Source: a virus
Taxonomy: Duplodnaviria; Heunggongvirae; Uroviricota; Caudoviricetes
Length of the DNA stretch: 34,673 nucleotides
Direction: 5' to 3' (one strand)
IMG/VR virus record: IMGVR_UViG_2917408641_000007
Shown: piece after piece, positions 14,054 to 17,022 of the stretch
How the letters are laid out: each line of letters opens with the position of its first letter
Position numbering within the stretch: position 1 is the stretch's first letter
Made by a program: the position numbers and the translations under genes
The notes under the pieces: model-generated
What the model was told of the DNA's origin: nothing
Databases searched by the model: none
What the model saw: the letters and a program-made list of their open reading frames with translations, nothing else

Positions 14054-14696
14054 TGGCAGCAAATACCGAAATATTTGGGTAGTTGGCGATCTGCACGGAT
14101 GCTACACGAACCTGATGAAAAAACTGGAGACGATAGGATTCGACACCAAAAAAGACCTGCTTATCTCGGTTGGCGATTTGGTCGATCGCGGTACAGAGAA
14201 CGTCGAATGTCTGGAATTAATCACATTCCCCTGGTTCCGAGCTGTACGTGGAAACCATGAGCAAATGATGATTGATGGCTTATCAGAGCGTGGAAACGTC
14301 AATCACTGGCTGTTTAATGGCGGTGGCTGGTTCTTTAATCTCGATTACGACAAAGAAATTCTGGCTAAAGCTCTTGCCCATAAAGCAGATGAACTTCCGT
14401 TAATCATTGAACTGGTGAGCAAAGGTAAAAAATATGTCATCTGCCACGCCGATTATCCTTGTGACGAATACGAGTTTGGAAAGCCAGTTGATCATCAGCA
14501 GGTAATCTGGAACCGCGAACGAATCAGCAACTCACAAGACGGGATCGTAAAAGAAATCAAAGGAGCGGACACGTTCATCTTTGGTCATACGCCAGCAGTG
14601 AAACCACTCAAGTTTGCCAACCAGATGTATATAGATACCGGCGCAGTGTTCTGCGGAAACCTCACATTGATTCAGGTACAGGGAGAAGGCGCATGA
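14031..14696 (+). CDS. ninI: NinI serine/threonine protein phosphatase (calcineurin-like metallophosphatase)
   Basis: From the internal ATG of track ORF 13956..14696: [29 protein letters not shown]...GDLVDRG...GNHE metallophosphatase motifs; 221 aa. Confidence 0.8.
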
Positions 14697-15316
14697 GACT
14701 CGAAAGCGTAGCTAAATTTCATTCGCCAAAAAGCCCGATGATGAGCGACTCACCACGGGCTACGGCTTCTGACTCTCTTTCCGGTACTGATGTGATGGCT
14801 GCTATGGGGATGGCGCAATCACAAGCCGGATTCGGAATGGCTGCATTCTGTGGTAAGCACGAACTCAGCCAGAACGACAAACAAAAGGCTATCAACTATC
14901 TGATGCAATTTGCACACAAGGTATCGGGGAAATACCGTGGCGTGGCAAAGCTTGAAGGAAATACTAAGGCAAAGGTACTGCAAGTGCTCGCAACATTCGC
15001 TTATGCGGATTATTGCCGTAGTGCCGCGACGCCGGGAGCAAGGTGCAGAGATTGCCACGGTACAGGCCGTGCGGTTGATATAGCAAAAACAGAGCAGTGG
15101 GGGAGAGTTGTCGAGAAAGAGTGCGGAAGATGCAAAGGCGTCGGCTATTCAAGGATGCCAGCAAGCGCAGCATATCGCGCTGTGACGATGCTAATCCCAA
15201 ACCTTACCCAACCCACCTGGTCACGCACTGTTAAGCCGCTGTATGACGCTCTGGTGGTGCAATGCCACAAGGAAGAGTCAAACGCAGACAACATTTTGAA
15301 TACGGTCACACGTTAG
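14693..15316 (+). CDS. Q: Late-gene antiterminator Q (lambda type)
   Basis: 207 aa [60 protein letters not shown]... with C-terminal Zn-finger CRDCHGTGR...CGRCKG; matches lambda Q. Confidence 0.85.
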
Positions 15317-15358
15317 CAGCATGATTGCCACGGATGGCAACATATTAACGGCATGATA

Positions 15359-15387
15359 TTGACTTTTTGAATAAAGCTGGGTAAATT
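15359..15387 (+). promoter_or_regulatory. pR'-like late promoter (with expected overlapping qut site)
   Basis: TTGACT -35, 17-bp spacer, TAAATT -10, about 45-70 nt downstream of the Q stop, as for lambda pR'. Confidence 0.55.
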
Positions 15388-15422
15388 TGACTCAACGATG
15401 GATAAATGCACTCGTTAAATAA

Positions 15423-15458
15423 AGCCCTGAGTTAATAGCTCGGGGCTTTTTGCGTTTT
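15423..15458 (+). terminator. Promoter-proximal rho-independent terminator (tR'-like candidate)
   Basis: AGCCCTGAG-N7-CTCGGGGCT hairpin (one G-U pair) followed by TTTTTGCGTTTT about 30-60 nt downstream of the predicted pR' start. Confidence 0.45.
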
Positions 15459-15595
15459 AAGCACGACCTTTCTGAAAGCACATCAAACCAAATACCAGAC
15501 AGACAAAAATAATCACCTTATCCGCTGTTGCTACGGTGCGGTGTGCTTTGCATAAAAGAAAACCAGCTCAATGGCTGGCTTCGTGAAAGCGGGTG

Positions 15596-15630
15596 GCATG
15601 AGGTTGTTAGCGCAACCTCATGCCGTTTTG
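15596..15630 (+). terminator. Second hairpin terminator candidate upstream of the lysis genes
   Basis: Perfect 11-bp stem GCATGAGGTTG/CAACCTCATGC with 6-nt loop followed by CGTTTTG; short T tract, so strength is uncertain. Confidence 0.4.
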
Positions 15631-15751
15631 CCCGTGCATATCGGTCACGAACAAATCTGATTACTAAACACAGTAGCCTGGATTTGTTCTATCAGTAATC
15701 GACCTTATTCCTAATTAAATAGAGCAAATCCCCTCAATGAAGGGGTAGAGC

Positions 15752-15955
15752 ATGTACCGTATGGACAAAATCAGAGAATGGTTCAGTTACAGCTTCGGAG
15801 GACTGACTGCGATGGGTGGCATTCTCTCCCTGAATGACTGGGCTGTCATCATTGGTATTCTTTGTACTGTCGGCACATTTGGCATTAACTGGTACTACAA
15901 GCGCAAAGAGCGCGAGGACAGATTGAATGGCAATGTCACCGGCACTACGAAATAG
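15752..15955 (+). CDS. Small two-TMD holin (pinholin-like), dual-start motif M1-Y-R-M4
   Basis: 67 aa [67 protein letters not shown]; two hydrophobic segments, charged C-terminus, first gene after pR', followed by SAR endolysin. Confidence 0.75.
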
Positions 15956-16430
15956 CGTAATAGCGGCGATAAGTGGCGGGGCTATTGCTATAGCATCTGT
16001 GTTAATCACTGGACCGAGTGGTAACGATGGTCTGGAAGGTGTCAGCTACATACCATACAAAGATATTGTTGGTGTATGGACTGTATGCCACGGACACACC
16101 GGAAAAGACATCATGCTCGGTAAAACGTATACCGAAGCAGAATGCAAAGCCCTCCTGAATAAAGACCTTGCCACGGTCTCCAGACAAATTAACCCGTACA
16201 TCAAAGTCGATATACCGGAAACAACGCGCGGCGCTCTTTACTCGTTCGTCTATAACGTGGGCACAGGCAATTTCAGAACATCGACGCTTCTTCGCAAAAT
16301 AAACCAGGGCGATATCAAGGGCGCATGTGATCAGCTACGGCGCTGGACATACGCTGGCGGTAAGCAATGGAAAGGGCTGATGACCCGTCGTGAGATTGAG
16401 CGTGAAGTCTGTTTGTGGGGGCAACAATGA
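15927..16430 (+). CDS. SAR endolysin (T4-lysozyme-like muramidase with N-terminal signal-anchor-release domain), phage 21 R-like
   Basis: N-terminal SAR segment [17 protein letters not shown] followed by [18 protein letters not shown] (E-D-T catalytic triad pattern); overlaps the holin 3' end. Confidence 0.85.
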
Positions 16431-16522
16431 GCATGATTTGCTTTTTCATGGCAGCGTTGCTCGCATTGAATGGCAACGATGCGTGGCCGTGGTTTCTGGC
16501 CGTTGGGGTGTTGATGTCATGA
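16427..16522 (+). CDS. Possible small hydrophobic peptide (31 aa) between endolysin and Rz
   Basis: ATG overlaps the endolysin stop (ATGA) and its stop overlaps the Rz start (ATGA); product [31 protein letters not shown]. Speculative. Confidence 0.2.
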
Positions 16523-16956
16523 GTCGGTTAACCGCGATTATCTCCGCTCTGGTTATCTGCATCATCGTCTGCCTGTTATGGGCTGTTAATCATTACCGTG
16601 CTAACGCCATGACCTACAAAGAGCAGCGTGATAAAGCCACGTACATCATCGCTGACATGCAGAAGCGTCAACGTGATGTAGCAGAACTCGACGCCAGATA
16701 CACAAAGGAGCTTGCTGATGCTAACGCGACTATCGAAAGTCTCCGTGCTGATGTTTCTGCTGGGCGTAAGCGCCTGCAAGTCGCCGCCACCTGTGCAAAG
16801 TCAACGACCGGAGCCAGCAGCATGGGCGATGGAGAAATCCCAAGACTTACAGCAGATGCTGAACTCAATTATTACCGTCTCCGAAGTGGAATCGACAAGA
16901 TAACCGCGCAGGTTAACTACCTGCAGGAGTACATCAGGACTCAGTGCTTAAAATAA
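16519..16956 (+). CDS. Rz: Rz i-spanin
   Basis: From internal ATG of track ORF 16390..16956: [27 protein letters not shown] (N-terminal TM) followed by coiled-coil periplasmic domain; contains embedded Rz1. Confidence 0.8.
16718..16903 (+). CDS. Rz1: Rz1 o-spanin (outer-membrane lipoprotein), embedded in Rz in the +1 frame
   Basis: [20 protein letters not shown] lipoprotein signal with lipobox then proline-rich [16 protein letters not shown]; AAGGAG RBS 8 nt upstream of ATG (track start 16712 is TTG). Confidence 0.75.
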
Positions 16957-16999: not shown

Positions 17000-17022
17000 C
17001 CTCGCAGAAGCGGGGATTTTTT
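17000..17022 (+). terminator. Rho-independent terminator after Rz/Rz1
   Basis: CCTCGC-AGAA-GCGGGG hairpin (one G-U pair) followed by ATTTTTT. Confidence 0.5.

Follow-up and report, generated by a model that had tools for sequence, protein, structure and literature searches.

A class II phage holin gene with two in-frame starts and a hairpin homologous in position to lambda sdi

RESULTS

The viral record analyzed here (IMG/VR IMGVR_UViG_2917408641_000007; "the window" is the whole stretch of DNA, 34,673 nucleotides) contains a holin gene with two in-frame start codons, directly preceded by a hairpin that takes in its Shine-Dalgarno (SD) sequence. By analogy with phages lambda and 21, this is probably a dual-start holin/antiholin gene in which the hairpin sequesters the SD, sets the dose and the antiholin-to-holin ratio, and in this way sets lysis timing. 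The feature is real, and its interpretation is right as far as sequence analysis goes.

The late operon and lysis cassette

The start of a lambdoid late-gene region and its lysis cassette occupy 14693-16956 on the + strand, the strand of all the features described in this section. The antiterminator gene Q (14693-15316; Pfam Antiterm, E=2.5e-57) is followed by a late promoter resembling pR' (TTGACT-17-TAAATT, 15359-15387; promoter scan). Directly past the promoter is an intrinsic terminator, the target of Q antitermination (15421-15449; a 13-bp stem and a T run in the terminator scan). The record of phage Emek annotates a qut site at the promoter region and a terminator at the equivalent of 15421-15449; the annotated qut site is 1 bp off that of P22. 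The holin leader is about 300 nucleotides (nt) long. From 15359 to 15629 this late leader is a mosaic, in which the pR'/qut and terminator region gives way to a lambda-identical segment; in the latter is another GC-rich hairpin that resembles a terminator and has GTTTT as its tail (15595-15629).

The holin gene has 67 codons (15752-15955) and was assigned to class II and the HP1 family, with remote homology to S21, from Pfam (PF16080, E=4.4e-21), PHROG (PHROG 20, "holin"), hydropathy, and hhalign against S21. Its 3' end is overlapped by a gene for a SAR endolysin of the R21/RrrD type (15927-16430; Pfam Phage_lysozyme, E=1e-45). The genes for the Rz i-spanin (16519-16956; Pfam Phage_lysis, E=8.6e-36) and the Rz1 o-spanin, an open reading frame (ORF) embedded in Rz (16712-16903; Pfam Rz1, E=1.1e-19), complete the lysis cassette; PHROG 13 and PHROG 3198 were matched for Rz/Rz1.

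Between the endolysin gene and Rz is an ORF of 31 codons (16427-16522) that ATGA overlaps couple to both neighbors. It starts M-S-M and has two short hydrophobic stretches. Of 74 related cassettes, 25 have it, and their copies differ by a few changes that alter the protein and by one synonymous change. Phage Emek lists it as a hypothetical protein (orf30 in a note), and most records leave it without annotation. It may encode an extra membrane peptide of the lysis cassette. Directly past Rz/Rz1 is a terminator-like hairpin, CCTCGCAGAAGCGGGG and then ATTTTTT (17000-17015), and phage Emek has an annotated rho-independent terminator at the corresponding position.

The hairpin and the two starts

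An earlier, sequence-only reading of this DNA had proposed that CCCCT-CAATGA-AGGGG, upstream of the holin, forms a stem-loop, and the hairpin was confirmed at exactly the coordinates given, 15730-15745 (+). The 5' arm, CCCCU (15730-15734), is shared base for base with the lambda sdi stem. Identity with lambda ends in the loop, CAAUGA (15735-15740), which is hypervariable among relatives. The 3' arm, AGGGG (15741-15745), together with A15740 forms the SD, AAGGGG (15740-15745). This is the best match to the anti-SD sequence. The stem includes the SD of the first ATG, as had been claimed.

The SD is separated by the spacer TAGAGC (15746-15751, +; read from the sequence) from the first start codon (15752-15754, +), which encodes Met1, is conserved in relatives, and is the predicted start of a 67-amino-acid (aa) form. 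The second start codon (15761-15763, +) encodes Met4, the predicted start of a 64-aa form, and belongs to an M-(x)-R/K-M motif present in nearly all of the 267 relatives described below. The SD precedes AUG1 by 6 nt and AUG2 by 15 nt, the latter a poor spacing. From the first start the codons are ATG TAC CGT ATG GAC AAA (M-Y-R-M-D-K), with both ATGs in frame. The two in-frame Mets of the earlier reading are therefore present, but the single basic residue that it placed between them is not what the gene has; Met1 and Met4 are separated by two residues, Tyr-Arg, of which one is basic.

The 5-bp stem CCCCU/AGGGG is both the minimum free energy and the centroid structure (-7.5 kcal/mol; ViennaRNA) and is the weakest among the lambda-type variants. 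A search of the whole window against Rfam matched no family.

The leader is that of lambda S

The 155 nt from 15580 to 15734 (+), ending with the 5' arm of the hairpin, are 100% identical to the leader of the phage lambda S gene through the 5' arm of sdi (four-way alignment with lambda, NC_001416). The identity runs through AAATCCCCT and stops inside the hairpin loop; past the point of divergence lambda has TATTGGGGGTAAGACATGAAGATG and the sequence here has CAATGAAGGGGTAGAGCATGTACCGTATG. At the same place lambda has the stem AUCCCC/GGGGGU (-9.7 kcal/mol). This stem is sdi, an element defined by genetics that divides translation starts between Met1 and Met3. Control of the Met1:Met3 ratio by sdi was reportedly established by Blasi et al. 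in 1989 and Chang et al. in 1995. Because leader, 5' arm, and place are shared with the lambda stem, the hairpin here is a positional homologue of lambda sdi, which is more than the "sdi-like" element of the earlier reading. That reading missed that the leader is lambda's own, and also that well-known phages already carry the gene.

The likeness to the lambda S start extends to the 3' arm, which is a G-run SD in both, to an AUG1 6 nt past the SD, and to a second in-frame AUG after a basic residue; both genes are also the first of a Q-dependent late operon. The stem here is shorter and weaker than that of lambda (5 versus 6 bp, -7.5 versus -9.7 kcal/mol), its loop is longer (6 versus 5 nt), and the two starts are 3 codons apart (M-Y-R-M) versus 2 (M-K-M). 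The coding sequences are unrelated: from the hairpin loop on, lambda no longer aligns, leaving the leader as the only shared part. Lambda S is a class I protein of 107 aa with three transmembrane domains (TMDs), and it makes large holes for a cytoplasmic endolysin.

A query of leader plus holin matched 1,110 of 5,426 complete E. coli genomes. Most of these matches covered the leader part only, at 94 to 96%, and lay upstream of genes annotated "phage holin, lambda family." Matches to at least 80% of the query, that is, genomes carrying this holin, numbered 82.

The holin and its endolysin partner

The small holin with two TMDs that the earlier reading had foreseen is borne out by hydropathy, which predicts two hydrophobic segments, one weak (residues ~11-27) and one clear (residues 30-47), with only N-D between them. 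Since a 67-aa protein with these two segments has no room for a third TMD, the three-TMD class I topology, which that reading had named as an outcome that would refute it, was not found. Among residues 11 to 27, 9 of 17 are Gly, Ser, Thr, or Ala, and the summed apparent free energy of TMD1 is +3.8 kcal/mol versus +6.2 kcal/mol for TMD1 of S21. Residues 50 to 67 are highly charged and form a basic C-terminal tail, and there is a net positive charge at both termini. We predict two transmembrane segments with both the N and the C terminus inside.

Pfam placed residues 5 to 53 in PF16080 (Phage_holin_2_3, the HP1 family) with 75.1 bits against a cutoff of 28.8 bits. With its length, its two hydrophobic segments, and no Pfam match to a lambda-type holin, the protein falls outside the lambda S family (class I). 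In a profile-profile alignment with S21-type holins, hhalign gave a probability of 95.4% (E=1.7e-8) over the full length, with M..MDK aligned. The BLASTP match to S21 was nonsignificant (E=0.27, ~30% identity), and the Pfam P21 holin S family (PF04971) scored 19.5 bits, below its threshold of 26. By these sequence comparisons we class the holin as a remote relative of S21 that lies outside the P21 holin S family.

The SAR endolysin partner that had been proposed also held up. The product of the next gene is ~95% identical to R21 (PDB entries 3HDE/3HDF) and RrrD (4ZPU), with E=2e-106 for 4ZPU and E=2e-105 for 3HDE; its N terminus is hydrophobic and Gly/Ala-rich by hydropathy, and its E37, D46, and T52 align with what is presumably the catalytic triad of R21. 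From genomic context, an adjacent and overlapping gene, the holin is predicted to work with this endolysin.

The start of the endolysin gene is itself ambiguous. The ORF begins M-A-M (15927-15935, +), with ATGs at 15927 and 15933; the second Met is where the alignment with the crystallized R21 and RrrD begins, and the annotated gene is 504 nt in Emek and 498 nt in an E. coli RefSeq record. M-A-M could be a second two-start arrangement.

Folding statistics and the cost of opening the SD

By its own folding statistics the hairpin is unexceptional, and 5-bp GC stems are common. Its z-scores against dinucleotide shuffles were +0.25 (101 nt), -0.10 (42 nt), and -1.33 (29 nt), and 21 of 200 dinucleotide shuffles were as stable as the 29-nt fold. 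We also compared the SD-pairing probability of each leader with that of mononucleotide shuffles, and the free energy of opening the SD with that of shuffles. For the leader here, only ~4% of composition-preserving shuffles reached the observed SD-opening cost. For many of the relatives' leaders 20 to 90% of the shuffles matched, and most leaders were nonsignificant, since a G-rich SD finds partners in a pyrimidine-rich leader however the bases are ordered, or nearly so. As these single-sequence and shuffle statistics are uninformative on their own, the case for the hairpin rests on comparison.

In place of shuffles we used 67 annotated lambda genes as the control for the SD-opening cost. The median cost was 2.64 kcal/mol for the lambda genes and 7.05 kcal/mol for 59 unique holin leaders, 83% of which were above the 90th percentile of the controls; with one representative for each of 17 hairpin types, the median was 7.98 kcal/mol. 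The P values for this difference (Mann-Whitney, 2.9e-7 against lambda genes and 6.9e-6 against strong-SD controls) are only indicative because the hairpin types are not fully independent phylogenetically. Judged by this comparison of sequences across relatives, the hairpin exceeds chance.

Conservation among relatives

The 267 loci that we compared came from genomes, viral contigs, and metagenomes, and their sources were Enterobacteriaceae, Yersinia, Serratia, Morganellaceae, Arsenophonus, and Vibrio. Nearly all of these loci have the dual start: 111 have MYRMDK, ~125 have MRM[S/H/P/T/N/Q/F][D/E]K, and the remaining dual-start forms are MQRM, MIRM, MKRM, and MKM. The residue between the Mets is invariantly basic, with an Arg codon that varies (CGT, CGC, CGA, AGA), and both AUGs and the intervening basic residue are kept down to ~40% protein identity.

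There are a few exceptions. In two metagenome contigs (L136 and L137, at ~566-620) the N terminus is MYRINK, so that the second Met, and with it the dual start, is lost at 93% protein identity. Their ribosome-binding site (RBS) is remodeled to ATCCTCTCAATGAGGGGGGGG(G)T-ATG, with the hairpin kept and the spacer cut to 1 nt. Start 1 is changed from ATG to GTG in a single locus (L202), a Morganella-type metagenome contig (at ~601) with V-R-M-S-D-K, and initiation there should be lower. A Pasteurellaceae member (L036) has a single start, like HP1, and a Hahella member is also an exception. The last exception is a Serratia/Brenneria form (L028 to L031) with a long N-terminal extension. In these loci a much longer N-terminal region, rich in Gly, Thr, and Ala and lacking an M-R-M start, precedes the conserved TMD2 and NWYYKRKE tail; the architecture is different, and the topology class may be as well.

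Nearly all of the 59 unique 34-nt leaders fold into a hairpin with the SD as its 3' arm, in ~16 arm combinations. Besides CCCCU/AGGGG and AUCCCCA/UGGGGGU, the pairs (5'/3') include CACC-CGC/GCG-a-GGUG, CACC-CCGA/UCGG-a-GGUG, ACCU-GCU/AGC-g-AGGU, CAC-ag-CCAACG/CGUUGG-ag-GUG, CACUCC/GGGGUG, CACUCU/GGAGUG, CCUCC/GGGGG, and others. The leaders from Citrobacter, Raoultella, and metagenomes keep the outer CACC/GGUG, with an inner helix of CGC/GCG, CCGA/UCGG, or UGCU/AGC-A; in Serratia-like leaders the inner helix is CCC/GGG, CCCC/GGGG, or CCAACG/CGUUGG.

ATCCCC is present in 115 of the 117 lambda-type leaders. The other two have ATCCTC, a C-to-U change that keeps a G.U pair, and the G run is constant. 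In this set the conservation of ATCCCC exceeds that of its 5' flank and, by a wide margin, that of the loop. The segment between the arms has 12 versions of 7 to 13 nt, and its first and last bases covary: they are T...A in 3 versions, A...T in 6, and unpaired in 2, which amounts to a switch of the closing pair between U-A and A-U. RNAalifold on MAFFT alignments of subgroups found the stem. In one subgroup 1 of 7 pairs was compensatory; in the lambda-type leaders, none of the 4 invariant core C-G pairs was. Formal covariation is weak because the arms cannot be aligned between subgroups and are invariant within them, and the 3' arm, being the SD, is conserved anyway.

DISCUSSION

The dual-start interpretation of the sequence-only reading is supported by analogy and by conservation. 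The late transcript from pR', made under Q antitermination, carries the lambda-identical leader, the last bases of which (CCCCU) pair with the gene's own SD (AGGGG) to form the hairpin, with in-frame AUGs 6 and 15 nt past the SD. By analogy with S107/S105 of lambda and S21-71/S21-68 of phage 21, ribosomes would start at both AUGs. The 67-aa form would be the antiholin: M-Y-R adds one positive charge, which would slow the exit of TMD1 from the membrane, so that the long form would stay longer in the inactive two-TMD topology. Such a retardation of TMD1 exit by N-terminal positive charge was reportedly described by Park et al. in 2006. The 64-aa form would be the active pinholin, the weakly hydrophobic TMD1 of which would leave the membrane, and TMD1 exit would lead to depolarization and release of the SAR endolysin. 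The hairpin would mask an SD that is ideally spaced for AUG1 and would thus limit initiation, above all at AUG1; limited initiation would set the total holin dose and the antiholin:holin ratio, and would thereby determine when lysis occurs.

The main rival to start choice holds that the stem does no more than limit how much holin is made. The hairpin would then be a general attenuator that masks the SD and lowers or delays a lethal membrane protein; one AUG would be productive, and the second Met would be merely a conserved residue. Because L136 and L137 keep the hairpin, with a remodeled RBS, after the loss of Met2, the stem may chiefly throttle total holin translation, and since the HP1 holin, of the same Pfam family, also functions without a dual start (PMC7312051), the stem could act independently of start choice. 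The attenuator would also fit the 15 nt between the SD and AUG2, and the high SD sequestration in all leaders, whether the starts are spaced M-x-M or M-x-x-M. Against it stands the retention of both AUGs and the basic residue to ~40% protein identity while the Arg codon changes synonymously. S21, moreover, has the same motif and geometry, the homology between the two holins covers the N terminus, and both starts are reportedly used in S21 (Barenboim et al. in 1999). Attenuation and start choice are not mutually exclusive, and we consider attenuation in place of start choice to be unlikely.

That the pairing is coincidental, with CCCC kept as part of a shared lambda-type leader, GGGG kept as an RBS, and no selected function of the stem, seems to us improbable. 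The z-scores near zero, the frequency with which shuffled leaders sequester the SD equally well, and the invariance of the four core C-G pairs, which hence carry no information, are what a coincidence would give. However, unrelated leaders (from Citrobacter, Raoultella, Serratia, Yersinia, Morganellaceae, Vibrio, and metagenomes) always pair the SD, and do so with different arms; their inner helices are wholly different and yet complementary, and the closing pair switches between U-A and A-U. Nor does coincidence predict that ATCCCC should be better conserved than its flank and the loop, or that opening the SD should cost far more than in ordinary lambda genes, and the homologous lambda stem is genetically proven. 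Hardly credible is a fourth reading, in which the inverted repeat has no part in holin translation and is an intrinsic terminator of the minus strand or another kind of site that acts at the DNA level. A consensus scan did list CCCCTTCATTGAGGGG and then ATTTGCTCTA, on the minus strand, as terminator-like, but it gave 9 such sites in 1.85 kb. The T tract is poor, the only minus-strand ORF in the region is antisense to the holin and is not a credible converging gene, and relatives keep the hairpin but do not conserve the sequence of the would-be T tail. We rejected the terminator for want of a T tract and of a converging gene.

The preferred reading, a dual start with a stem over the SD, has its closest parallel in phage 21. 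The gene for S21 also has an N terminus of the form M-x-x-M-D-K-I, with AUG1 and AUG4 7 and 16 nt past GGAGG (6 and 15 nt past the SD here), and a stem that overlaps the SD (-11.9 kcal/mol). Both proteins have two TMDs, the first rich in Gly, Ser, Thr, and Ala, and the endolysin of the window is close to R21. The two differ in the sequence of leader and stem, in the basic residue (Arg3 here, Lys2 in S21), and in the periplasmic loop, which has 2 residues here versus ~7 in S21. The dual start and the SD stem-loop of S21 were reportedly described by Bonovich and Young in 1991 and Barenboim et al. in 1999.

The Haemophilus phage HP1 holin, the namesake of PF16080, has been found experimentally to be a pinholin that works with a SAR endolysin, and the HP1 hol gene has no dual start and no known antiholin (PMC7312051). 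It shares its Pfam family with the holin here (75 bits) and differs in length (78 aa) and in its single start. Much closer are the gp13 proteins of the Salmonella phages PS119, ST104, SE1, SPN9CC, and BTP1, all 100% identical to the holin here, and that of PS34 (98.5%); the holins of the APSE phages ("phage 21-like group II holin") are relatives at ~40 to 47% identity. Database records call gp13 a holin, a class II holin, or a hypothetical protein, with the two starts and the stem left unannotated, and no paper on the start region of gp13-type holins was found in the library searched.

The regulatory design is textbook, known from lambda and 21, and the gene is an ordinary member of its kind. 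Only three points are mildly new: the 5' arm of the stem is lambda's own, the identity breaks in a hypervariable loop, and the dual start spans a family whose kinship with S21 is remote. Both the dual start and the SD stem may be ancestral to the whole S21/HP1 pinholin superfamily and may have been lost later in HP1-like members. We also suggest, tentatively and as something rather less than an even bet, that the sdi hairpin is a portable regulatory joint, to which the late leader contributes the 5' arm AUCCCC and the incoming holin cassette contributes the G-run SD. Because any incoming cassette would bring such an SD, the stem would re-form after recombination. The hypervariable loop may then be a preferred crossover point for swapping unrelated holins (class I in lambda S, class II here), and holins may be swapped behind one leader without loss of start-site control.

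The current understanding of lysis control is unchanged by these results. If both starts are used, the gp13-type gene would join lambda S and S21 as the third worked example of a dual-start holin/antiholin clock. The gene is widespread: E. coli and Klebsiella prophages carry it, as do P22-like Salmonella phages, among them BTP1 of epidemic ST313. Natural variation in stem length (5, 6, or 7 bp), the GTG at start 1, and the loss of Met2 could serve in the study of how lysis timing is tuned. The joining of lambda's own sdi arm to an unrelated holin bears on how mosaic phages exchange lysis cassettes without breaking their regulation.
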